This document shows, piece by piece, positions 96-60,279 of a stretch of 64,000 nt of DNA. The translations under genes and the position numbers were made by a program. The stretch lies in the IMG/VR virus record IMGVR_UViG_3300002835_000017; one strand, 5' to 3'. This DNA comes from a virus. The stretch's first letter is position 1; each line of letters begins with the position of its first letter. Below the pieces are notes generated by a model that was not told where the DNA came from, searched no databases, and saw only the letters and a list, made by a program, of their open reading frames with translations.

Positions 96-1625
96 TTATT
101 TATCCATTGTAGATTTACCGAAAACTCTTTGTATTTGTGATTTACCAGAAGAACCTACCTTTGATTGTAATATTTTAAGTGCTTCCTTTTTCAAATCAAT
201 AGGATGTGAATCGAACCATTCAATAGTACCTTCATTACTTTTTATTGCTCTTCGTCTCTGTCCACCATCATCAATATAATCGGTATAAAAATCATAATGT
301 CTTAATATGAAATCTGCTAATTCTTTTCCATTTTTTGCGGGTGCGTTTTGAATTGCTTCGTTCATAGATTCATATTTAATCATATCTGGATTAAACTTTT
401 CAAAATTCTTTCTTGCCCATTTTACGGCATCTTCATAAGAATTAAATTTAATCCTATCCTGTTTGAACCCTTTTTTCTTATTTAAAAAATCAATATAAAC
501 TTTATCTTCATTTACTGATTCACTAACTACCTTATCGCCCCAAAACGATACTGATGGCATGTTTCCGAATGTTGTATCATATTTAGAATCAATGCCAAAT
601 CTTGATTTTAGGATTTTAACTACCCCACTACCAAATTTTTTATCTGTTAGTTTAAGATAAACTTTATTCTTATTACCACCATCTTTAATTTGCCCACTTA
701 CAAATTTTGAACCTATTGATTTGATAATATCATCTACTACATCTGCAACGAGGTATCCTTTCAAATCAGATTCGTTTACTGATTCTTCTACTCTATTCAT
801 TTTCTCATCCGATACCCAATATGCCGTTGAACCACCGATTGAATTACGGAACATCTTTTCCATTTTTTCAGCGTATTTTTTAGCATCATTATATGAACTA
901 AATACCATTGGCTTACCAGTTGTTTTAAAGGTTTTTGGGTCAAATTCTTTTTCCAAATCTTTACCCTGTCCTCTACCTCTGTTGTAGCTTACATAGTATT
1001 TACCTTCGTTTATAGATTCTTTTAAGGTTCTTTTTTTAAGAATTATTTGTTGAATTTGTGAAAATATAGATTGTATATCTTTATCTAACTGCTTTTCATC
1101 TGCACTCATTGGTGATTCTATATCAACATTAGAGTAAAGTTTTTTCTTTTTAGCAATTAGAACATCTACCTTTTTAATTAAATCGTTTTTTACCTTATCT
1201 AAATCCTTTATGATTTCAGATGGAGTTTCTTCGTTTACTACACTATATCCAGTCAAATCAGCTTGTCTCTTTCCCTTCTTTTCTTCACTATCTTTACCGC
1301 TAAATGCAAATGGAGTATTGTATCCTTCAACACCACCAGTAGTATTCATTTCATCTACTTTTAATTCGGCATCTTTATACATATCACTAACTTTAGCATT
1401 TAATTCATCTGCTAATTTCTTCTTTTGAGTAGTTAGTGTTTTTAATTTTTGTATATGTTCTTTTTCAGCGGGAGTACCTTTGGATTTTTTATATGCTTCC
1501 AAATGCTTTTCCATTGCATCAATTACTTTTGAATAATCAGTTTGAATAGCTTTAACTGAACGTAATTCAGCCAACACCATTTCTTTGATTTTATTAGATA
1601 CTATAGTATTATTTGTAATTGACAT
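96..1625 (-). CDS. Modular putative internal head protein with repeated ES(V/I/M)NE linkers
   Basis: 509 aa; short modules separated by VVNEE, LKESINE, EESVNE, SESVNE, YESMNE; located downstream of portal. Confidence 0.55.
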   Translation of the reverse strand: MSITNNTIVSNKIKEMVLAELRSVKAIQTDYSKVIDAMEKHLEAYKKSKGTPAEKEHIQKLKTLTTQKKKLADELNAKVSDMYKDAELKVDEMNTTGGVEGYNTPFAFSGKDSEEKKGKRQADLTGYSVVNEETPSEIIKDLDKVKNDLIKKVDVLIAKKKKLYSNVDIESPMSADEKQLDKDIQSIFSQIQQIILKKRTLKESINEGKYYVSYNRGRGQGKDLEKEFDPKTFKTTGKPMVFSSYNDAKKYAEKMEKMFRNSIGGSTAYWVSDEKMNRVEESVNESDLKGYLVADVVDDIIKSIGSKFVSGQIKDGGNKNKVYLKLTDKKFGSGVVKILKSRFGIDSKYDTTFGNMPSVSFWGDKVVSESVNEDKVYIDFLNKKKGFKQDRIKFNSYEDAVKWARKNFEKFNPDMIKYESMNEAIQNAPAKNGKELADFILRHYDFYTDYIDDGGQRRRAIKSNEGTIEWFDSHPIDLKKEALKILQSKVGSSGKSQIQRVFGKSTMDK

Positions 1626-4583: not shown

Positions 4584-5522
4584 TTACCATTTTCTACAAG
4601 ACCAATAGTTTGCTTTATGTCTTGGGCCTGGACTATCACAATTCATTCTTGCTCTAAATGATTTTCTAGCTGCAGGATTTGATTTTCTGATTTTCATTCC
4701 TTTTTGTCCAAAGTTTACCTTAACAACATTACCTTGTGGGTTCTTAACATATACTTTGAATTTCTTAACATCACCTTGCATTGGTTTACCCAATTGTACT
4801 TCTCTACCTTGATATTCTGCTTCTCTCAAACATTGACAACCTTCATTTAAGTTTTTATCATATCCTCGCATAAAAGCAATGAAGTCTTCCATATCCTCAT
4901 CTTCAACATCGTATTCTTCTGGTTCAACGTATCCGTAGTTTACATCATCATCTGAATTGATATCTTCACTTATAGGAACGCAATTAGGAACTTGTCTACC
5001 TCCCTTATCTTTCATACCAACTTGCTTATATCCATCCCAACAAGCCTCATTTAATTCCACACTTTCACTGCAAGTTTTCCAACCACCACCTTTTTCTTTG
5101 TAGTTTTTTGCAGCCCATCCGTTTGCGTATGCTGATGGATAAACATCAAATTTAGATTTTGCTGCTGCTTTAGATGCTGCCCATTTACCTGCATCGGTTG
5201 GGCAATTCTTTTCTAAAAATAGGTTTATTTTTTCTTCTATACTCATAGTTTCATTTTTTGGTTTGGTTGAAACATTTATTGGTTTTTTGCCTTGTCCACT
5301 ACTATCTTTACCACCTCTACCCGCATCATTTTGTGCAGCTCTTTTTCTTCTAGTAGCACTTTCTTTTTCTTTTTTACTCATTCCAGCAGCTTTTGCCGCA
5401 GGAACACATTTTGCATAACCCCTTTTTTCTCCCGAAGTTCCGCATGGCGGATGCTTACCATCGACTTTTTTGCCGATGTTTACCCATTTTTCTTTAAACC
5501 ATTTATCTAAATCTTCGTTCAT
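4584..5522 (-). CDS. Modular basic, Cys-containing phage protein
   Basis: Modules DLDKWFKEKWV..., YPSAYANGW, CWDGYKQVGMK..VPNCVP, AEYQGREV...RKSFRARMNC...ANYWSCRKW separated by xNE/xRE linkers. Confidence 0.65.
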   Translation of the reverse strand: MNEDLDKWFKEKWVNIGKKVDGKHPPCGTSGEKRGYAKCVPAAKAAGMSKKEKESATRRKRAAQNDAGRGGKDSSGQGKKPINVSTKPKNETMSIEEKINLFLEKNCPTDAGKWAASKAAAKSKFDVYPSAYANGWAAKNYKEKGGGWKTCSESVELNEACWDGYKQVGMKDKGGRQVPNCVPISEDINSDDDVNYGYVEPEEYDVEDEDMEDFIAFMRGYDKNLNEGCQCLREAEYQGREVQLGKPMQGDVKKFKVYVKNPQGNVVKVNFGQKGMKIRKSNPAARKSFRARMNCDSPGPRHKANYWSCRKW

Positions 5523-5555
5523 CTATAAGAGTTTCAATATATAAATATAAAAAAA

Positions 5556-8534: not shown

Positions 8535-11500
8535 TTATTCGTAAAATATACCTAAAATTTGATTTAGTGGTGCAAATGTACCTGTTAATTTATAAGTGTT
8601 ACCTTTATAAACGAATACAATACCTTCGTTTGGAACTATTTTATCTTTACCACCTATAGATGCTAATCTACTTAATTCCATTTTTAATTTAGCTATTTTA
8701 GATACATCACCACTACCTCTTACCTTTTCTGCAGTAGATTCCAATCTGCTTTTCATATCGGCAATTGCTGAATTTGGATTTGCGGTTAGTACTGAACTCA
8801 TAAATGAAAGAACATCAGCACCTACTCCCAAAAATATTTCTTCAAATTGTCTAACATTTTCTTTTTGTTGCTTTGCTACATTTACTTTATCATTTTCAAT
8901 TGCCCATTCTTGAGCTTCTTTATCAGCAATAGTATTTAAACGGAATGATTTATCACCAAATGCCCATCTTCTTACCAATGCTTCTTTTTCTAATTTTTGT
9001 AATTTAACTTTTGATTTATTTACAAAATTTTCCCACCATGCTTGATGATATTCGGAAACACCATCATTATTGGATAACCCAAATTCAGATTGTAATTTTT
9101 GTAATTTACTTAAATATTTATTTTGTTTTGCACTCAAATCTTCATTTTTAGGAAGTTGTGTGACAGGAGGTCCTTGAATTGTATACTTTGATTGAACATC
9201 GGCATTCACCTGCTTAATCATTCCTGCTAATTTAGTTGCAGCTGATTGGTCAGCACCTACCGCACTTCCTTTTTCATCATAACAAGTTGTGTTATGGAAT
9301 ACTAAAAGAGCCTGTCCATACGGAATAACATTTACCGAAGTTGGCCAAATTACTTCCAAATTCATAAAACACTGACCTTCGTTAAATATTTTCTTTCGTT
9401 GTGGTTCTGAAAGAGATTGAACTGCTGCTGATAAATCTTTCATTGCAAAGTTATAAGCATCGGTTAATCCACCTCTGCCACCAAATTTAGATGCAACATC
9501 TTCAATTCCCATTGCGTTTGCTCCTGCATTTGCCAAATGTCCTTTGTTTCTTGCTGCAATTAATCTACCATTTTTCCAACTGATTGCCAATGCCTGTCCA
9601 TCGGTTTTTTCTCTTGTCAATTCCAATTCACCAGTTAATGCACCAGTTATTATGTTTTTTAAATCACCAAAAGTTAAATCCATATCATCAAATGGGTGAG
9701 ACATGTGCCCGTATGCACCACCTTCAGTTAAAAGAGATTCATTTACTAATCCTGTTTTTGAAAAATCACCTTTAATAGTACCACTTTTATTTACTGAATA
9801 AACACGAACACCAGCTTTTTGAATTTCGTCTGCCACTTTTTCTACAACATCAGGAGATACTTTATAAAAACGAAGGAAATTATTACCATCATAACTATAT
9901 CCATTATTTACAATATTATGAAATCCTCTTACAGAAGTAGATGTAGTTTTCATTGCATTTACACCATGCTTTTTCAAAATAGCATTTACCACCTTTTTTA
10001 CAGGATTCATTTCCGCTTCGTTTAACTTAACTCCTGCGTATTCTAATCTATACTCATAGTATTCTTTTTTAATATCATAAGGAACTTTTGAATTCTTTCT
10101 GAATATTTCATCTACCATCTTTCGAGTATCGTTTGATGATAGTTTCCATTTTACTTTATCTTTATCTAATGTAAAAAAAGTATTTAAAGTAAAATCTATT
10201 TTGGTCAACATCGGTTTCAAAATTTCATTTTTAAAAAATGAATAGTATTCTTTTCGTTGTGAACCATCTAAATAATTAAGAGCGAAATCGGAATCATACA
10301 ATTCGTTTTCTAATGATTTTGCAATCATCTCCAAAACATATTTTTTATCGTTGTTACCGAGATATTTTTCTTCACCACTGCCAATTACATATTTGTACTG
10401 ATTACCCACCAAATCTTTTAATTTGAGTTCGTTTAATTTACCAGTATCGGTTTTGAAAAACGGACCTCTTCTTACACTTCTAAAGTCTAAACTCATTTCG
10501 TTTCCAAAAATTTCTGTAGGTGCAAGTATTTTCAATCTAATAGTTCCGTTTTTATTATCTACACCTAAAGTTTCAAATTCAATTTCGGAATACTTTTTAC
10601 CCTTAAATCCTAAATTCTTACCAGTAATAAACTTATGAACTTTACCACCACTAACTGCCTGTGCTTCTTGTAGGTTTGTTTTTTCAGCTAAACCCAACTT
10701 ATCAGTAACATACGTTACTTCTTTATATCCGTAGTTTTGTAATTGTTTAACTACATCGTTTCTATCTGCTTTAGGGTCATTACAAACAATTGCTCCAATC
10801 TTTTTTCTAGCAAATGAACCTGCGTTATCCCATATTTTCATAATTGCTTTGAAGTGCCAATCATTTGAACCAACTTCTTTTAAAGATTTTGCAGGTTCAT
10901 ATCCTCTATCTTCAGTATCTTTTTTATCTATTTGATGTCCTACCTGCTTTGTAGTATCATCAAAATCAACTGTATCCAATTCTGCAGGATATCCCAAATC
11001 AGGAGTGTAATTACCAGTTCTATGATGATGTAGAAAATCTTTTTGAGCACCACTTTTTGCGTGTTTTGAATGAGTTACTACACCTATAGATTCTCCTCTT
11101 GGTATTCTGAATGTTGTTGCCTTTTTACCATTAATCGTTGGCATTCCGTGGTCATCAGTTCCAATATCTTTAACGGTAACTTTTTTGTTCTTAAATTTAC
11201 CCATCAAAACTTCATCACCCTTATCAACATCTAAATTAATGTCTTCTTTAACAAAATCAGTTTCTACATATTCTACATTTGGTAAATTTTTTATAGTATA
11301 CTTTATAGTTCTTTCTTCCGCTTCATCATCTCCAAATATAGCATCTGCTTTTGGAAATTCAGTTTGTGTGTATCCACCATTTTTGTACCAAGCTTCACCT
11401 TTATCGGTATCTAATGCTCTCTTCTTGCCTTTCTTTATAAATGCGCCATCTGGAACATCTGCGGTGTTTGCAGTTTGAACATTACTAACTTCGTTATATA

Positions 11501-14042
11501 TTTGTTTATTTATTCTTCCATACTCTCTCATCAGAATTCCAGCTACGGCATGTGCTTGGTTTTCTATAGGAGAACCATCTGCCCCATCTTTTTCTGCATT
11601 TCTAACTAATCCCAACTCATCTTGCTTTCTATGAACCATTTCATGTGCAAGTGTACGAAGTATATCCGCTGTCAATCTACCCTCTGTTGCTACATATATT
11701 GATTTATCATCTGGATTATACCCACCCAAAGATGTTTTTACTTCAGCAAATTCTCTACCACCAACTAATGTTACATTTGGAGATTCTTTTAACTTCAATC
11801 TTTTAGTTGCAAACTCTACAAAGTTCTGAATAGATTGATGTTTTGATTCAGATAAATCCTCTTTCATCAAATCCGAAGCGTTAGCCATCGATTGGTTTTT
11901 AGTTCCTTCTTTTTTATATCGAGCAATCGTTTGTATCAATTGTTCATCGGATAGTTTATAGTTTTGCATTATTTCTAATGTTTTTTCTATAAACTTTGGC
12001 ACAAACTTTTTCGTATCAAATTCTTCTTCACCCTCTTTATTTTCAAATATTTTAGCTACCCCTAATGCAATACCTCCTAATGAAGCTTGTGCTTGATTAG
12101 CTCCCAATGATTCAAACGCAGAGTGTTTTATTATATCTTTAACTATATACGCCCCCAAATTCCCTCCTCCAAATTTGGTTGCTATTCCTGCACCAGCTCC
12201 TTGTATAACACCACTAATACCCGCTCCTTTAGATGCGGCCGCAATACCTCCTATCAATCCTCCGGTAACTGCGATTGAACCCATAATTATTGCGGTAGTT
12301 TTTACTAAACCTCCAACGGCCTTTTTTTGTCTTTTACTTTCTTTCCAAGACTTTTCCGCTAATTCTCTTTGTTCCGGTGTTAAATCTTCTCTAAATACGG
12401 GTTCTTTTGTTGTTTTTGGCTTTCCTAACCAATTTTTTTCTTGTACCTTATTTCCATCCGCATCCACTACATCATGACCATGTTTATCTTTTTTATAAAC
12501 AGGAACTTCTTTCATTTTAGGTTTGCGATTTCCAAAAGCATTTAACTTACTTGTAGTTGAATCAGGTTCTGTAAAATCATCCCAATGTTTAGTTTTACCC
12601 TCTGAATCCTTAACACCTCCCCATCGTCCAGTGGTTGCCAATGATTTTATAGCACTACCTGTTCCCACCAGCATTTCTTTGTTATGCTGATATGTATGCA
12701 TAATGCCATGCCCAATCTTTGATGCTGCTTTTTTTAGTACACTCATAGCCCCTTTTCTTTCTTCCGATTGTGGGCTATTTACTTTATCAATTGATTCGTT
12801 ATCTTCTTTTGATAATCCTTTTCTAGCATTATTTAAATTTTCTGTTGTTTTCGCGTCTTTCTTTTCTTTATCAGATTTTTCGGCAGACGATTTTAACTCA
12901 CCTCCACTTAATTTTTGAGATGGTGGTGGCGGTGGTGGTGGCGGTGGTGGTTTTGGTACGCCCTGTTTTGGTTTCGTTGCATCCACCTTACCTTGTGCAG
13001 TTGCCCCCTTATTTACAGGTTGCCCTGGTTGTGGCGGTGGAGGTGGTGGAGGTGGAGGTGGTTTTGGTATTCCACCACTTTGTTTTTTCTTAACTGCATC
13101 AGCTTCGGCAGGAGTTAGGGTTCTAATTTTACCATCGTCAGATTTGTGACTCGCAGGTCCTTTAGCATCTTTACCATAGTATCCACCACCCAAATGTTTT
13201 AATCCCATTTTTTCGGCTTCACTTTCTTCGTTAAAATATGTTCTGGTAAATTCTTCGAACATTTCTTCCATTGCAACTCTACCAAGTATTTCTGCAATTG
13301 GGTTATATAACTCATTCGTTGGATGTTCGGTTTCATGCCGTGTAGGATGTGGTTCGGGTCTCATTTCATACGATGGCTTTGTATTATTGCTCTCATCCGT
13401 TGAACCCGTTGGTGCACCATTAATGTATCCTCCTGGAAGATTTAATCCAGTTCCTATACCACCTGGAAAACCATTTTCATTTAATTTACCTGTTATCATA
13501 CCGAATACCTCTTTATCAAATTTTGGATATGCTTTTAAAAATCCCTTTTTCTTTTCATCATCACTCCCTTTACCCAACCAATTACGAACATCTGTTCCAC
13601 TAATTGGATTTGGTTCAGCAGGAACGGCGTATACATATCCAATTTCCTCGTATCCGTATCCAGCTTTTTCTTTATATGGTTTAAAATATTTACCTGCTAA
13701 TCTATCTGCATCCTTTTCTCCAACTGCCGCAACATACGCAGTAGTTTTACCATCAAATTGAGATAATATTTCTTTTGGAGCATACGGATTACGAACTTGA
13801 ACTATCTTATTCGATGGTATTCCAAACATTGTAGTAATTATTTTTACCTTCTCATTAAAATTAAAAGGAGATTTTGGTCCTGATGTATCATTGGAGGTTC
13901 CAATATATACATTTGATTTTCCAAATTTTTGAGCAAGTTTTAAATAAGAAACATAATGCCCCTTATGGAATGGTTGGAAACGGCCGGAGTATACTACTAC
14001 GGTTTTTTTTACTACTGGTTTATCTTTTTCGTTTAAATTCAT
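8535..14042 (-). CDS. 1835-aa multidomain protein: HxGH nucleotidyltransferase (NMNAT-like), poly-Pro, Gly-rich hydrophobic segment, zincin-like HExxH domain, C-terminal KxDG ligase-like domain
   Basis: GRFQPFHKGH and ISGTDVR; two P10 runs; LAHEMVH..E; EKTDGQ, MNLEVI, EGIVF, KLTG. Confidence 0.75.
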   Translation of the reverse strand: MNLNEKDKPVVKKTVVVYSGRFQPFHKGHYVSYLKLAQKFGKSNVYIGTSNDTSGPKSPFNFNEKVKIITTMFGIPSNKIVQVRNPYAPKEILSQFDGKTTAYVAAVGEKDADRLAGKYFKPYKEKAGYGYEEIGYVYAVPAEPNPISGTDVRNWLGKGSDDEKKKGFLKAYPKFDKEVFGMITGKLNENGFPGGIGTGLNLPGGYINGAPTGSTDESNNTKPSYEMRPEPHPTRHETEHPTNELYNPIAEILGRVAMEEMFEEFTRTYFNEESEAEKMGLKHLGGGYYGKDAKGPASHKSDDGKIRTLTPAEADAVKKKQSGGIPKPPPPPPPPPPQPGQPVNKGATAQGKVDATKPKQGVPKPPPPPPPPPPSQKLSGGELKSSAEKSDKEKKDAKTTENLNNARKGLSKEDNESIDKVNSPQSEERKGAMSVLKKAASKIGHGIMHTYQHNKEMLVGTGSAIKSLATTGRWGGVKDSEGKTKHWDDFTEPDSTTSKLNAFGNRKPKMKEVPVYKKDKHGHDVVDADGNKVQEKNWLGKPKTTKEPVFREDLTPEQRELAEKSWKESKRQKKAVGGLVKTTAIIMGSIAVTGGLIGGIAAASKGAGISGVIQGAGAGIATKFGGGNLGAYIVKDIIKHSAFESLGANQAQASLGGIALGVAKIFENKEGEEEFDTKKFVPKFIEKTLEIMQNYKLSDEQLIQTIARYKKEGTKNQSMANASDLMKEDLSESKHQSIQNFVEFATKRLKLKESPNVTLVGGREFAEVKTSLGGYNPDDKSIYVATEGRLTADILRTLAHEMVHRKQDELGLVRNAEKDGADGSPIENQAHAVAGILMREYGRINKQIYNEVSNVQTANTADVPDGAFIKKGKKRALDTDKGEAWYKNGGYTQTEFPKADAIFGDDEAEERTIKYTIKNLPNVEYVETDFVKEDINLDVDKGDEVLMGKFKNKKVTVKDIGTDDHGMPTINGKKATTFRIPRGESIGVVTHSKHAKSGAQKDFLHHHRTGNYTPDLGYPAELDTVDFDDTTKQVGHQIDKKDTEDRGYEPAKSLKEVGSNDWHFKAIMKIWDNAGSFARKKIGAIVCNDPKADRNDVVKQLQNYGYKEVTYVTDKLGLAEKTNLQEAQAVSGGKVHKFITGKNLGFKGKKYSEIEFETLGVDNKNGTIRLKILAPTEIFGNEMSLDFRSVRRGPFFKTDTGKLNELKLKDLVGNQYKYVIGSGEEKYLGNNDKKYVLEMIAKSLENELYDSDFALNYLDGSQRKEYYSFFKNEILKPMLTKIDFTLNTFFTLDKDKVKWKLSSNDTRKMVDEIFRKNSKVPYDIKKEYYEYRLEYAGVKLNEAEMNPVKKVVNAILKKHGVNAMKTTSTSVRGFHNIVNNGYSYDGNNFLRFYKVSPDVVEKVADEIQKAGVRVYSVNKSGTIKGDFSKTGLVNESLLTEGGAYGHMSHPFDDMDLTFGDLKNIITGALTGELELTREKTDGQALAISWKNGRLIAARNKGHLANAGANAMGIEDVASKFGGRGGLTDAYNFAMKDLSAAVQSLSEPQRKKIFNEGQCFMNLEVIWPTSVNVIPYGQALLVFHNTTCYDEKGSAVGADQSAATKLAGMIKQVNADVQSKYTIQGPPVTQLPKNEDLSAKQNKYLSKLQKLQSEFGLSNNDGVSEYHQAWWENFVNKSKVKLQKLEKEALVRRWAFGDKSFRLNTIADKEAQEWAIENDKVNVAKQQKENVRQFEEIFLGVGADVLSFMSSVLTANPNSAIADMKSRLESTAEKVRGSGDVSKIAKLKMELSRLASIGGKDKIVPNEGIVFVYKGNTYKLTGTFAPLNQILGIFYE
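12921..13061 (-). repeat. Two poly-proline (P10) coding tracts
   Basis: (tgg/cgg/agg)10 on plus strand at 12921-12950 and 13032-13061; each tract preceded by G(I/V)PK in the protein. Confidence 0.95.
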
Positions 14043-14056
14043 ACATATAAATATAA

Positions 14057-46338: not shown

Positions 46339-46376
46339 TATAAATATTCTTAAAAAATAAATCTAACATATTTATA
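46339..46376. promoter_or_regulatory. Back-to-back TATTTATA motifs (divergent promoters)
   Basis: TATTTATA on minus at 46339-46346 before the tail fibre, and on plus at 46369-46376 before the RHH gene. Confidence 0.7.
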
Positions 46377-46599: not shown

Positions 46600-47309
46600 T
46601 CTTCATGTGAGTAGAATGATACTATATTATATTTAATATCATTCTGTACTTTTTCAACTTCATGAAATAAATTTTTATCAGAATCCAATACTACAAAATT
46701 AGGAAAAATTGGATTTACTTTAATATCATTTCCATTTAAATCATGTAATATCAAATGTCCACCATTTGATTCACTCCATTCGTTATTTAAAAAATATAAA
46801 AATACACATATTCTGTTATGAGGTTTTCCATCATCATGTAATTTTATCTCACATCCATTATCGTAAAATTGTAATTTTGTATTTCCAGTAAATTTATTAA
46901 ATAATTTTTCAGGATAATATTTTCTTACAAAGTTTTTTTGAAAATCTCTTAATACTTCATTGTTTATTCTATTAGTTATTTCAGAATCCATAGAAGTACC
47001 AAATACCCAAGTTGGATAGAATCCACATTCTTCAATTTTTTTCAATTGATATTGGTGTGCTTTATTATAAACATAATCGGCAGTATCTAAATCGTTATCT
47101 CTTGCTAAATAATTATCATAAACCAATTCTTCCATATAAGATTGGTCATTATATTTAAACCAATAATCATATCTAGAATATCTTACAAAATTTGTATTAT
47201 CTATATAATTTTTTATTTGTTTAAAACCATCTAAATCAATTAGTTCGGAATAATCTTCCAACTTACCGTAAATGTATCCACTATTTCTGTAATTTTCTAT
47301 ACTTTCCAT
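46596..47309 (-). CDS. 2OG-Fe(II) oxygenase, prolyl-hydroxylase-like
   Basis: HDD, FLYFLNNEW...GGHL, FHEV. Confidence 0.85.
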   Translation of the reverse strand: MESIENYRNSGYIYGKLEDYSELIDLDGFKQIKNYIDNTNFVRYSRYDYWFKYNDQSYMEELVYDNYLARDNDLDTADYVYNKAHQYQLKKIEECGFYPTWVFGTSMDSEITNRINNEVLRDFQKNFVRKYYPEKLFNKFTGNTKLQFYDNGCEIKLHDDGKPHNRICVFLYFLNNEWSESNGGHLILHDLNGNDIKVNPIFPNFVVLDSDKNLFHEVEKVQNDIKYNIVSFYSHED

Positions 47310-50300
47310 TAAAAATTAATTTTACTATATCCATTTTCTTTTTTAATTTCTATTAATCCATCTACTATATCTCTCATTTGTTCTAAATGTGAAATTATCC
47401 ATATAAAATCAAATTGAGTTTTAAGATACTGCATCATCATAAATAGGGATGATAAGTTATCCGAATCCAATGTACCAAATCCTTCATCTATTACTAAAAA
47501 GTTTGGACGAGGTAAGTTACATACATTAATGAGTGCTACTCTAATTGCTAATCCACTAACAAATTTTTCCATACCACTACACATTTCTAGTCCCCACTCC
47601 TGGTCATCATATACAATTTTAGCATTAATTGATTTACCATCCATCTCCATCGTAACTCCAAAATCAACTACTTGTGCTAAAATATTATTTACTTCGTTTT
47701 CTATTACTGGCAATGCCTTTGAAATTAATTCATAAGGTATTCCATCTCTCTTCACTGCATCCAAATAATAGGTGTACAGGCGGTTCTTTTCTTCCAATAC
47801 CTTAACATCATTCATCTTCTGTTTTATGTCCTCTATAAACGAAGATATGGATGAAATAGAACCATTTAAATTTGTTATATCTTTATTTAATTTATTAATT
47901 TCAATTCCAATATTATTTTTTGTTTTATTTAGTTCAGAAATTACACTTTCTATTTGTTTATTTTTAGAAATTGTATCTTCATTTTCATAATACTTATTTA
48001 TATTTTCATTAATAGTATTTAATTGGTTTTCTAATAATTGTTCTTTAGTTTTTAAAGCATCTAATTCAACTTCTGTTTTTTCTAAAACAATTTTACTTTT
48101 AGAATATGTGTTTTTTAATTCATTATACTCACTATATTGTGTATCTACACCATCTAATGTATTTAATTTAAATTGAATAGAATTAACAATATTTTTGGAG
48201 GTATTTAATTTGTTTTTTAAAATTACCAACTCATCTTTTGCGTTAATTGCATCTTTTACAAAAACATTATCACAACAAAATTCACAATTAGGGTCATATT
48301 TATGTTCTTCTAAATGTAAAATCTTTTCATTCAATGTTTCTTCTATATATTTTAGTTTTTGATAAGAATTTTCCGCTTCTAAAACTTCATTTTTAATACT
48401 AATATACTTTGAGTAGACAGTTTCGATATCAACATCAACTTCTTCTACTTTAAAAGTTTTATTGTTTACCAAAGAATGTGAAACTTCGGTTAGAATTGTA
48501 CTACATTCTATAATTTTATTTTCTTTCGTATTGTATTCTTTATATAAATTTTCTATTTGAGTTTTTAAATTCGTTTTACTTAATTCTAACTTTGGCAAAT
48601 CTAAATTGGAATCTATAGGAGTTAATTCTCTGCTTAATCCAACAATTTTATCATTCAAATCAGTTACTTCTATATTTTTATTGTTTAGTAATGTTTCTAA
48701 TGATTTTAATTGTGATTTTTTTTCAATTAATTCCTTACCTTTTTCGGCAAGTTCGGTTGTAAAATCCGTTTTCTTAAAGTTTTTAATCAATACTGAAACT
48801 TCTCTAATATCTTCGGTTGCAGTATCATACAATTTATCAAAAATAGTTAACCCCATAAATTGAGCAAGAAGGTCTTTCCTTTCCGATTGTGATTTATCAA
48901 TGAATAGAGCGTTATTACCTTGCAGTGATAGTGCAGTTAGTACAAAATCTTCATATTTTCCAACATATTGTTCAATAATTTGGTTTGTATCTCTTCTTTC
49001 GGTTCCATTTAATGAGGTTTTAGTATCACCATCTTGTCTCCAAAATTGAACATCTACTTTTACATTTTTACCTTTGTTAATTGTTTTAGCAGTTCTCTGA
49101 ATACCATAATCTACACCATCTATTTGAAAATATAATGTACAATCAAATTCTGTTTTACGATTATTTAAAATATTAGATGCTTTATATGCTCTACTGCTTT
49201 TATCATATAAACAAAATGATACCGCATCAAATAAAGAAGATTTACCTGCCGCGTTTGGAGCAAATAATCCAACTAATCCGTTTAATTTTGTAAAATCAAT
49301 TTTATTCTTTTCACCATAACTAAACATATTTGAAAATTCAAAACGAATTGGTTTCCATTGTATATTACGTTGGATATCATCTTGAACTATTCTACTATTT
49401 ATATCTCTATTAATCAGTTCTAGCCCTTTCAAATCTTCAGGAACTACAAATGGCATCATTCTTTCAATATACTCATTTATAAGTGAGTTTTGATAATTGA
49501 TATCCGAAATATCTTCAAAGTCTAATTTATTTAATCTATCACCTGTTTTAGATTTAGAAAGAGAATCGGTTCTGATAATTGTGAAATCCTCAATACCATA
49601 CCTCATCTTAATTTCAGCCATTACTTTTTTAGTATCGGCAGAATCGGTATTAGATAAACGAACTCTTAAACGAGGTTTTTTTGGCATATCCGTTACAATA
49701 GGAACTTTACCATTATCAACATCCATAGTATAATATCCATAATCATTTTGAATATCAACTTCTTCGTATTTCATACTATCTAAATCCCAAACAAGGAATC
49801 CGTGCTTATCCAGCGTTTCACCGAAGTTTTGTTGAATCAATGAACCCGCATAAACTATCTTACATCCACTTGGTGAAATCATAGTTTGTCTTTTATGAAT
49901 ATCACCTAATAGAGCTAAATCGTATCCATCAAACATTTCGGTTGTGAAATGACGAGATGAAACTGTGTATCCAATATCCGTTTGAGAGTTATCCACTGGC
50001 CCGTGAAATAGAGCAATCTTTTTATTAGAAGATAATGTATTTCCTTTTGGCCAATTTTCTTTTCTATCAAAAATACTAAATACTCCAAAATCTACCCCAC
50101 CAATTCCATACACTTGAGTATCTTTGAGATATGTGAAGTTTGGTAAATTTAGAGCCTCTACAATTGGTGTAAGTACATCCAATCTATCAGAATTATTCAT
50201 ATTACAATCGTGATTACCTGTAATAAGAATTGTTTCACAATGTTTAGAACATTCGGTAAATAACCAACTTATTTCTCTAACCAATTCAGGAGATAATTCC

Positions 50301-50467
50301 AATTTAGCATGAGCAATATCTCCTGCTAAATAAATGATTGAATCTTCCGTACCTCTTTTACGAATCTCCTCAAACATTTTTTCAAACACTTGCCGATACT
50401 CATTGTGTCTTTTCACATTACGGATGTGTATATCTGCAATATGATAAATCTTTTTTAATCTACTCAT
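47309..50467 (-). CDS. Fused Mre11/SbcD nuclease and Rad50/SbcC ATPase (gp47-gp46-like)
   Basis: DIH, GD, GNHD, GDIH; Walker A PNAAGKS; Zn hook CEFC; signature SGME; Walker B IDEGFG; H-loop ISH. Confidence 0.92.
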   Translation of the reverse strand: MSRLKKIYHIADIHIRNVKRHNEYRQVFEKMFEEIRKRGTEDSIIYLAGDIAHAKLELSPELVREISWLFTECSKHCETILITGNHDCNMNNSDRLDVLTPIVEALNLPNFTYLKDTQVYGIGGVDFGVFSIFDRKENWPKGNTLSSNKKIALFHGPVDNSQTDIGYTVSSRHFTTEMFDGYDLALLGDIHKRQTMISPSGCKIVYAGSLIQQNFGETLDKHGFLVWDLDSMKYEEVDIQNDYGYYTMDVDNGKVPIVTDMPKKPRLRVRLSNTDSADTKKVMAEIKMRYGIEDFTIIRTDSLSKSKTGDRLNKLDFEDISDINYQNSLINEYIERMMPFVVPEDLKGLELINRDINSRIVQDDIQRNIQWKPIRFEFSNMFSYGEKNKIDFTKLNGLVGLFAPNAAGKSSLFDAVSFCLYDKSSRAYKASNILNNRKTEFDCTLYFQIDGVDYGIQRTAKTINKGKNVKVDVQFWRQDGDTKTSLNGTERRDTNQIIEQYVGKYEDFVLTALSLQGNNALFIDKSQSERKDLLAQFMGLTIFDKLYDTATEDIREVSVLIKNFKKTDFTTELAEKGKELIEKKSQLKSLETLLNNKNIEVTDLNDKIVGLSRELTPIDSNLDLPKLELSKTNLKTQIENLYKEYNTKENKIIECSTILTEVSHSLVNNKTFKVEEVDVDIETVYSKYISIKNEVLEAENSYQKLKYIEETLNEKILHLEEHKYDPNCEFCCDNVFVKDAINAKDELVILKNKLNTSKNIVNSIQFKLNTLDGVDTQYSEYNELKNTYSKSKIVLEKTEVELDALKTKEQLLENQLNTINENINKYYENEDTISKNKQIESVISELNKTKNNIGIEINKLNKDITNLNGSISSISSFIEDIKQKMNDVKVLEEKNRLYTYYLDAVKRDGIPYELISKALPVIENEVNNILAQVVDFGVTMEMDGKSINAKIVYDDQEWGLEMCSGMEKFVSGLAIRVALINVCNLPRPNFLVIDEGFGTLDSDNLSSLFMMMQYLKTQFDFIWIISHLEQMRDIVDGLIEIKKENGYSKINF

Positions 50468-51409: not shown

Positions 51410-51440
51410 CAAAGATAGTATAAATATTTTATATTTCCAA
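51410..51440 (-). promoter_or_regulatory. Bacteroidota housekeeping-type promoter overlapping a TATTTATA motif
   Basis: Minus strand TTG-N20-TATCTTTG (consensus TAnnTTTG); TATTTATA at 51419-51426 lies in the spacer. Confidence 0.65.
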
Positions 51441-55215: not shown

Positions 55216-55264
55216 AATATTTTTATTATTCTTTGTTTATAAATATAATAATTTTTAAATTTCG

Positions 55265-60241: not shown

Positions 60242-60279
60242 TATTTGTTTTTATTTTATATAAATACTTTAATATTATT

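Follow-up and report, generated by a model that had tools for sequence, protein, structure and literature searches.

A modular 1835-residue protein from the head-gene region of an uncultured T4-like phage is a candidate capsid-cargo polyprotein with prohead-protease-type junctions

On the minus strand of a 64,000-nucleotide stretch of viral DNA (IMG/VR record IMGVR_UViG_3300002835_000017; this whole stretch is called the window below), positions 8535-14042 form a single stop-free open reading frame (ORF). Its product, P0001, has 1835 residues and a mass of 205 kDa. The source is a viral contig of 145 kb, ~77% complete by CheckV and ~30% in G+C, from an uncultured aquatic phage whose head assembly is T4-like. 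Nearly all genes of the window are carried by one strand. In the order of transcription, the P0001 gene is followed by two small ORFs, the T4-type large terminase (TerL), ORF312, the T4-type portal protein (PF07230, 244 bits), ORF291, an ORF of 74 residues and ORF509. Past the window edge lie ORF200, ORF149, an S77 (T4 gp21-type) prohead protease, small core-like ORFs, an acidic scaffold-like ORF450 and a gp23-type major capsid protein, homologous to T4 gp23 with E = 1e-32. The protease (PF03420, 107.7 bits, E = 3.9e-32, C1:92451-92927; ORF C1:92421-93011) is encoded ~1 kb outside the edge and is present in four of four long related contigs.

How is a protein of this length organised? A first-pass annotation, made from the letters alone, had described P0001 as a chain of unrelated modules joined at prohead-protease-type sites, cut apart in the prohead and injected as separate effectors. 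The reading frame and all ten junction motifs that it quoted are real and in their places: KLNE at residues 186, 1202 and 1339, YFNEE at 269, LSES at 730, IYNE at 848, FVKE at 930, SLKE at 1053, NLQE at 1123, and the double motif made up of LVNE at 1432 and LLTE at 1437. The same is true of the HxGH, HExxH and KxDG signatures (HKGH at 26, HEMVH at 800, KTDG at 1479), the poly-Pro and membrane-type segment, the motif upstream of the gene and the head-gene surroundings. Its premise of a gp21-type protease is borne out by the S77 protease and the gp23-like capsid protein that the phage encodes. The module map is given in Table 1; an arrow marks a junction that follows a Glu.

Table 1. Parts of the P0001 gene, sister polyprotein genes and the upstream box, with window positions
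Feature	Position	Strand	Basis
Whole polyprotein gene, P0001, 1835 residues	8535..14042	-	ORF call
N-terminal peptide MNLNE, residues 1-5; candidate short propeptide	14028..14042	-	M-N-[LI]-x-E kept in homologues
Predicted HxGH nucleotidyltransferase, residues 6-189, ends GKLNE189	13476..14027	-	PF01467, phrog_395, Foldseek, pLDDT
M1, residues 190-272, Gly-rich, one helix, low model confidence, ends YFNE272	13227..13475	-	homologues, AlphaFold2
Large module, residues 273-728, ends LMKE728	11859..13226	-	homologues, AlphaFold2
Zincin metallopeptidase-like module (minimal), residues 729-851, HEMVH 800-804, ends IYNE851	11490..11858	-	invariant motifs, fold matches
M6, residues 852-933, conserved, predicted disordered, ends FVKE933 (Glu invariant)	11244..11489	-	homologues, AlphaFold2
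M7, residues 934-1056, ends SLKE1056	10875..11243	-	homologues, AlphaFold2, structure matches
M8, residues 1057-1126, confident small helical domain (pLDDT 82-90), ends NLQE1126	10665..10874	-	homologues, AlphaFold2
M9, residues 1127-1205, beta-rich, ends KLNE1205	10428..10664	-	homologues, AlphaFold2
M10, residues 1206-1342, mostly helical, ends KLNE1342	10017..10427	-	homologues, AlphaFold2
M11, residues 1343-1435, with double site LVNE1435↓SLLTE1440↓	9723..10016	-	homologues, AlphaFold2, strain L087
C-terminal KxDG domain (M12), residues 1441-1835	8538..9722	-	invariant motifs
ORF312, between TerL and portal gene; second, small polyprotein; punctuated by hydrophobic-x-E, modules drawn from the shared pool	4584..5522	-	linkers, shared modules
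ORF509, between portal and prohead protease; third polyprotein, E↓SVNE↓ and E↓SINE↓ linkers	96..1625	-	linkers, shared modules
TATTTATA, gene orientation, 4 nt before the P0001 ATG	14046..14053	-	motif scan

The nearest cultured relative, Microcystis phage Mel-JY01, encodes at the same position upstream of the terminase a 639-residue "cytidylyltransferase like protein" that aligns to residues 12-188 and 1415-1833 of P0001 and to nothing between. Because this homologue is contiguous, P0001 can be seen as a conserved two-domain protein with ~1,225 residues inserted in its inter-domain linker. The description as unrelated modules fails for the two ends, which are an ancestral enzyme pair. The N-terminal domain is a predicted HxGH nucleotidyltransferase (NTase) with an NMNAT/PPAT-like fold: it scores 24.3 bits against PF01467 (cut-off 21), belongs to phrog_395 and carries HKGH at 26-29 and ISGT at 147-150. 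Foldseek matches its model with probability 1.00 to NadM and archaeal NMNAT (nicotinamide mononucleotide and nicotinic acid mononucleotide adenylyltransferases) and to PPAT, and the predicted local distance difference test (pLDDT) falls below 50 at residue 190.

In 12 sequences, with identities as low as 35%, the C-terminal domain keeps EK(T/L)DG unchanged; AARNK, NLE and EG[IVL]VF..YKLTG are likewise invariant, also at 35-38% identity. These motifs fit covalent nucleotidyltransferases, and on the strength of the motifs we call the domain KxDG or ligase-like. Searches in Pfam, in the PDB by sequence and by profile, with Foldseek and with a wide VIA-align search returned no match to a known ligase or capping enzyme. 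The sole weak rows of the PDB profile search were chance matches to viral fusion proteins, and the domain core is poorly modelled (pLDDT < 50 at 1478-1532). We also considered DUF6267 (PF19782), a language-model lead only, with 24% of the members of the nearest clusters carrying the family, and rejected it: its hidden Markov model matched nothing in the genome with E <= 10 and did not match the protein with E <= 1. An origin of the insert as an intein or other self-splicing element was rejected as well, as Cys/Ser/Thr...His-Asn boundaries are absent and the modules are independently mobile. Two homologues of the frame deserve mention. The insert-free orthologue of Mel-JY01 (L001:8908-10827) has IIAE↓GG ahead of its KxDG domain. 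A distant homologue of 915 residues from the 484-kb uncultured phage LR756508 (L002:5569-8316) carries at its N-terminus an additional module, in which a ParB-like DGHHRW motif is seen and which LLDE↓SIKYME↓ links to the NTase; ahead of its KxDG domain is a different insert of ~170 residues.

None of M1 to M11 has a Pfam or PHROG family match, and PHROGs names the NTase only. Downstream of YFNE272, which closes M1, homologues carry one of two alternative modules. Residues 273-728 contain two runs of ten prolines (328-337, 365-374), a region of helix and beta structure (390-582) and a hydrophobic stretch with a glycine zipper (585-603, KD19 = 1.9), which suggests, speculatively, membrane activity; a conserved internal cut-type site was not found in this stretch, so that it looks like one large module. 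M6 is placed after M7 or M8 in several homologues. M7 consists of a small beta-barrel core (934-986, weak Tudor/KOW-like matches) followed by a His-rich disordered part (987-1056). Altogether P0001 comprises the NTase, the zincin, the KxDG domain and at least six other independently mobile modules.

The mobility of these modules is seen in the relatives. Scanning IMG/VR with the C-terminal domain gave 393 relatives, of which the best 80 loci, with domains 73-96% identical to the query, were examined. Among them are 45 full-length proteins of 936-1933 residues, in which modules are gained, lost and reordered exactly at the linkers, where the annotation had advised looking for gain or loss. Alignments to P0001 break repeatedly at ~868, 933, 984, 1052, 1126-1133, 1200-1210, 1340 and 1433-1438, and in ~10 lineages the 852-933 module follows the 934-986 module. 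A rough clustering yields ~30 piece families, eight of which include a P0001 piece, and 28 distinct orders among 40 proteins. The 98%-identical strain L087 (L087:109-5334), with TerL and portal 99% identical, encodes a 1742-residue orthologue that lacks exactly residues 1343-1435, which is M11, between E1342 and S1436, to leave ...KLNE↓SLLTE↓GG.... This is a clean natural deletion of a module at the cut sites. A phmmer search with residues 728-1445 against 1.84 billion representatives returned 2,940 matches (1,019 at E <= 1e-10) in proteins of 96-1909 residues, and the matched stretches begin or end at query positions 124, ~478, ~615 and 708, which correspond to E851, E1205, E1342 and E1435.

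What do the junctions have in common? Nine of the ten quoted sites are module boundaries as defined by homology. The conserved site ahead of the zincin is LMKE728↓D rather than LSES, whose L-S-E732 is a second, less conserved one. A conserved hydrophobic-x-E is found at all 12 module boundaries. To examine junction contexts, the first residue of a module was projected onto every homologue, and contexts were dereplicated by the far-upstream five residues. Counted per distinct upstream context, P1 is Glu in 48/48 cases for M7, 26/26 for M8, 39/43 for M9, 15/15 for M11 and 51/54 for M12. At P3, L, V or I predominate, while P2 is free (N, L, K, T, S and others). Modules begin directly after x-x-Glu whatever their upstream neighbour, and the same is seen in 150 representatives clustered at 50% identity from the 2,940 matches. 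Doubled sites such as FIKE↓GLLLE↓GG and E↓SVNE↓ are frequent. In an unbiased test on all internal BLAST breakpoints of 73 homologues, 38% of the starts and 43% of the ends lie within a few residues of hydrophobic-x-E against ~15% expected (2.5-2.8-fold), figures that are descriptive and not probabilities, since the sequences are related. The controls hydrophobic-x-D/N/Q/S/T/G/A stay at or below expectation, and the histogram of end offsets peaks at zero. The threefold KLNE and twofold TGKLNE repeats of P0001 were discarded as evidence: a 4-mer occurs three times in 36% and a 6-mer twice in 11% of shuffled sequences, which is chance level.

AlphaFold2 was run twice on alignments of homologues, once for residues 1-935 (mean pLDDT 57) and once for residues 728-1835 (mean pLDDT 55). 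Confident folds are the NTase (to 189), 390-582, the zincin (730-849), M8 (1057-1119), parts of M9-M11 and the C-terminal half of M12. Stretches with pLDDT < 50 are 190-274, 713-729, 850-935, 975-1055, 1120-1132, 1188-1233, 1333-1345 and 1431-1448. The annotation had asked whether domain boundaries coincide with the xxE sites, and the models indicate that they do: ten of the 12 junctions lie in low-confidence linkers, compared to 11 of the 34 other hydrophobic-x-E sites (Fisher p = 0.003), so that the junctions do not fall inside folded domains. The two exceptions are E1056, one residue off a linker edge, and site 5 at the N-terminus.

Could the chain stay in one piece? P0001 might be an uncleaved multidomain protein that acts intact in the cytoplasm or in the virion, with linkers that are structural joints or recombination homologies. 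A site count at chance level (given below) agrees with such a protein, and recurring linkers such as ESVNE could be recombination joints. What is kept, however, is the Glu at P1 and the hydrophobic residue at P3 only, with P2 and the flanks variable; because nothing but P1 and P3 is fixed, the pattern is that of a protease site and not of recombination homology. The freely permuted module order speaks against a fixed cooperation of domains, and leaders of ten residues with the same terminal motif sit on module boundaries. We therefore regard an uncleaved protein as quite improbable.

These leaders resemble the capsid targeting sequence (CTS) of T4 head proteins. T4 gp21 cuts after Glu and itself has such a site, LIE-9 (PMC9026906). 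The CTS of IPIII has 10 residues, of which 4 and 7 target the protein and 8 and 10 (P3 and P1) control its processing; with Asp at position 10 it is still targeted but no longer cut (PMC9026906). From Alt, seven N-terminal residues are removed, and its C-terminus is also trimmed (PMC9026906). A T4 CTS reads MKTYQEFIAE (PMC8442874), and it is the sole part shared by the hypervariable set of T4 internal proteins (PMC3012670). In the phage analysed here, the prohead protease starts with MNKGLLIE↓, which recalls LIE-9 of T4 gp21, and the ORFs on either side of its gene (C1:91970-92419 and C1:93279-93914) start with MIKLKSILIE↓ and MIRLKNLLKE↓. In the capsid protein, VMLE50↓ and LLDE59↓ lie where the start of mature T4 gp23* aligns. 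Representatives headed by M10 start with MIRLKNILNE↓LKLNDL.., MIKLKNILNE↓ or MIKLTKILNE↓. Other representatives start with MIKLKDILNE↓ATMPPV.. (M11), MELRRESVNE↓ (M9), MKTFKQYLNE↓S (zincin) or MKRFIQYIDE↓AQAVSG... The leader ends coincide exactly with an internal module boundary of P0001. The insert-free Mel-JY01 protein also starts with a CTS-like peptide, MGKLINILLSE↓. P0001 and its close homologues start with a conserved M-N-[LI]-x-E peptide of 4-6 residues, shorter than any known CTS. As read from the sequences, the leaders, the protease and the capsid sites together tie the junction motif to prohead targeting and processing. We further noted two small IMG/VR polyproteins, L088:1835-2944 (370 residues, starting MIKLKDIINE↓) and L089:5777-6544 (256 residues, starting MIKLKDLLKE↓), with modules split by E↓SVNE↓ and E↓SVTE↓. 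Polyproteins headed by MIKLKDLLKE↓ consist of three modules.

Packaging and cutting need not mean that the pieces act in a host. They could serve as filler of the core or scaffold, act as internal proteins that condense DNA, or be peptides that the head expels, like T4 gp22, gp67 and gp68. The same type of leader heads the core ORFs beside the protease, M1, M6 and part of M7 are predicted to be disordered, and most T4 core fragments leave the head (PMC9026906). Set against this are enzymes that appear intact by their motifs (HKGH and ISGT in the NTase, HExxH in the zincin, the invariant KxDG), and a hypervariable module content that is typical of conflict proteins and not of scaffolds. A mere filler role is in our judgement very unlikely.

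P0001 has company in the head region. Residues 128-207 of ORF509 are 92-94% identical to a module inside the P0001-family proteins L037, L017, P0003 and P0007, and both ORF509 and ORF312 share modules with P0001-family proteins of other phages and with leader-bearing representatives, and have LNE↓ linkers. The PHROG matches of ORF312 map to three distinct stretches of its sequence. No zincin was found in either ORF.

The zincin module of P0001 itself brings up another source of cutting. Its fold matches YbeY (Z 9.9), SPRTN (8.8), Wss1 (8.4) and selecase (8.0), as well as IrrE/PprI by Foldseek, which gives the zincin fold a probability of 0.96-0.99, and HExxH and a Glu ~23 residues downstream (in PIENQAH) are invariant. 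Might P0001 then be a polyvalent protein that is freed by its own embedded zincin? Hydrophobic-x-Glu would in that case be the specificity of the HExxH module, acting in cis or in trans (on ORF509 and ORF312 too), before packaging or after injection. The zincin fold and the intact active-site motif are as such a model would have them. Moreover, MPTase is the hub domain of polyvalent proteins, and DdrB of phage P1 is processed before packaging (PMC5512222). The motif, on the other hand, equals the established specificity of T4 gp21 and also closes CTS-like leaders, among them the leaders of the head-core ORFs that flank the protease gene, and many junction-bearing proteins are without a zincin. 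We know of no minimal zincin that cuts after Glu with a hydrophobic P3. Release by the embedded zincin is, in our view, unlikely.

We favour, with a probability of about 0.65, the reading that P0001 is a capsid-cargo polyprotein, packed in the prohead, cleaved there by the S77 protease and carried along with the DNA. In this phage lineage the linker of the frame between the NTase and the KxDG domain has been filled with ~10 interchangeable modules, among them the membrane-type segment, the zincin and several small domains of 50-140 residues. P0001 would be built into the prohead core late in infection, where the prohead protease would cut after each junction Glu to yield ~10-12 separate proteins in the head. 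When the phage next infects, the released proteins would exit together with the DNA and be active in the cell straight away, like T4 Alt and IPI-III. Modules are swapped between phages and among the three head-region polyprotein genes with the cut sites kept, an exchange that would make for a fast-evolving payload. What we infer is that P0001 joins the prohead core and is cut by the S77 protease, and that its pieces stay in the head, are ejected and have a function in the host. An injected NMNAT-like enzyme could, to speculate, bear on defences that deplete nicotinamide adenine dinucleotide (NAD).

Several observations weigh against this proposal. The number of [LI]xE sites in P0001 is not enriched (14, versus 15.6 +/- 3.7 in shuffles); with site counts at chance, the case rests on the position of the sites and their conservation. 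Part of the junction conservation could be ordinary domain conservation, in that each module has its own terminal hydrophobic-x-E, and even the Mel-JY01 protein, which lacks the insert, has IIAE↓GG. With five residues MNLNE falls short of a T4-type CTS, in which residues 4 and 7 are required, and this makes targeting the weakest step. Head genes were not detected within the fetched flanks of L088 and L089, so that genes of this kind are not confined to head modules. None of the insert modules was found in cultured phages. The AlphaFold2 models are of modest quality, and M6 and the second half of M7, predicted to be disordered, may be spacers and not effectors. Finally, the zincin, found in 45 of the related polyproteins examined, is the most widespread and most constant insert module, which fits the embedded-peptidase model.

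How is the gene expressed? The window has 19 copies of TATTTATA in the orientation of the gene, and eight of them precede a start codon by no more than 45 nt (P about 1e-7). The eight copies, as (A)TATTTATA, are at 80-87, 2759-2766, 5540-5547, 14046-14053, 46339-46346, 51419-51426, 55238-55245 and 60259-60266. TATTTATA stands 4 nt upstream of P0001 and 14-33 nt upstream of seven other structural-gene starts; the starts that it precedes are those of ORF200, ORF291, ORF312, P0001, a 1753-residue tail fibre and three others. Judged by this distribution, TATTTATA is probably a regulatory (late or structural promoter) box of the structural genes of this phage group, and ATATTTATA may be a mark of late transcripts. 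As a T4-type late promoter of P0001 itself TATTTATA was rejected: at 4 nt from the ATG it is too close for a -10 box, and its sense orientation is not TATAAATA of T4.

Two further loci of the window were recorded. Immediately upstream of the P0001 gene, 15651-18302 (minus strand) encodes a transketolase-like fragment, a radical-SAM enzyme and an NAD-dependent sugar epimerase/dehydratase. At 47309-50467 (minus strand), one ORF of 1052 residues joins an SbcD-like nuclease (residues 5-337) to an SbcC-like ATPase (324-1051) and appears to be a fused counterpart of T4 gp47 and gp46.

The T4 internal proteins are the textbook case of proteins co-injected with DNA, encoded as single-gene cargo and studied in few coliphages. 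P0001 is like IPI, IPII, IPIII and Alt (PMC9026906, PMC3012670) in that its phage has a T4-type head module with an S77 protease, in the hydrophobic-x-Glu signal, in hypervariable cargo and in a late or head-gene location; its relatives and the head-core ORFs of this phage likewise have leaders of 10-11 residues that end in the cut signal. Unlike the T4 cargo, with separate genes, a CTS for each and a single N-terminal cut (in Alt also a C-terminal one), P0001 has ~10 units in one chain, internal sites and a leader of five residues, and none of its modules is homologous to IPI-III or Alt. In phiKZ, 201phi2-1 and SPN3US a gp21-related protease cuts after the Glu of a short motif in many head-internal proteins (PMC9026906, PMC10052503), and propeptides of giant phages have redundant multiple sites like the doubled junctions of P0001. 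In SPN3US every mapped cut removes an N-terminal propeptide, save for the self-cleavage of the protease (PMC10052503).

Polyvalent proteins were described by Iyer, Burroughs, Anand, de Souza and Aravind in 2017, with the zincin-like MPTase as their commonest domain and with delivery alongside DNA and proteolytic release as predictions (PMC5512222). They resemble P0001 in the many unrelated domains of one phage protein, in the zincin and in the neighbourhood of virion genes, and the LR756508 homologue adds a ParB-like DGHHRW. As far as can be told from sequence, P0001 fits the definition of a phage-type polyvalent protein (PMC5512222), and its gene lies among head genes. For polyvalent proteins, however, release by the embedded peptidase was proposed and cut sites were left undefined (PMC5512222), whereas the boundaries in P0001 bear a well-defined, conserved motif that agrees with the prohead protease encoded by this phage, and relatives have CTS-like leaders. 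Our literature search, with most subscription journals outside its scope, found no description of a polyprotein cut by a prohead protease, of a chain of retained and shuffled cargo modules, of such a leader in this phage group or of an NMNAT-like plus KxDG frame.

Is P0001 an example of something more general? We give even odds to the wider proposal that very abundant uncultured aquatic T4-like phages use the prohead protease as a general unpacking tool, both for polyproteins of shuffled modules, each bounded by hydrophobic-x-Glu, and for stand-alone cargo with a CTS-like MI(K/R)LKxILxE leader. If true, an environmentally common lineage would pack many cargo units in one cleavable chain and reshuffle them like cassettes, and thousands of combinations of mostly unknown small proteins would be pre-loaded in capsids and injected. 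The "polyvalent proteins" would thereby be tied to a concrete processing enzyme, one open to in vitro tests, and the CTS-like leader could carry T4-style protein-packaging technology to other phages. Sequence rules (leader, cut motif and module boundaries) would serve to predict injected proteins in metagenomes, and hundreds of compact domains, each with defined ends and a candidate for anti-defence or takeover, would become available for expression. These phages would then hold a large unexplored reservoir of proteins for the first minutes of host takeover and for anti-defence, with boundaries that can be read from the sequence.

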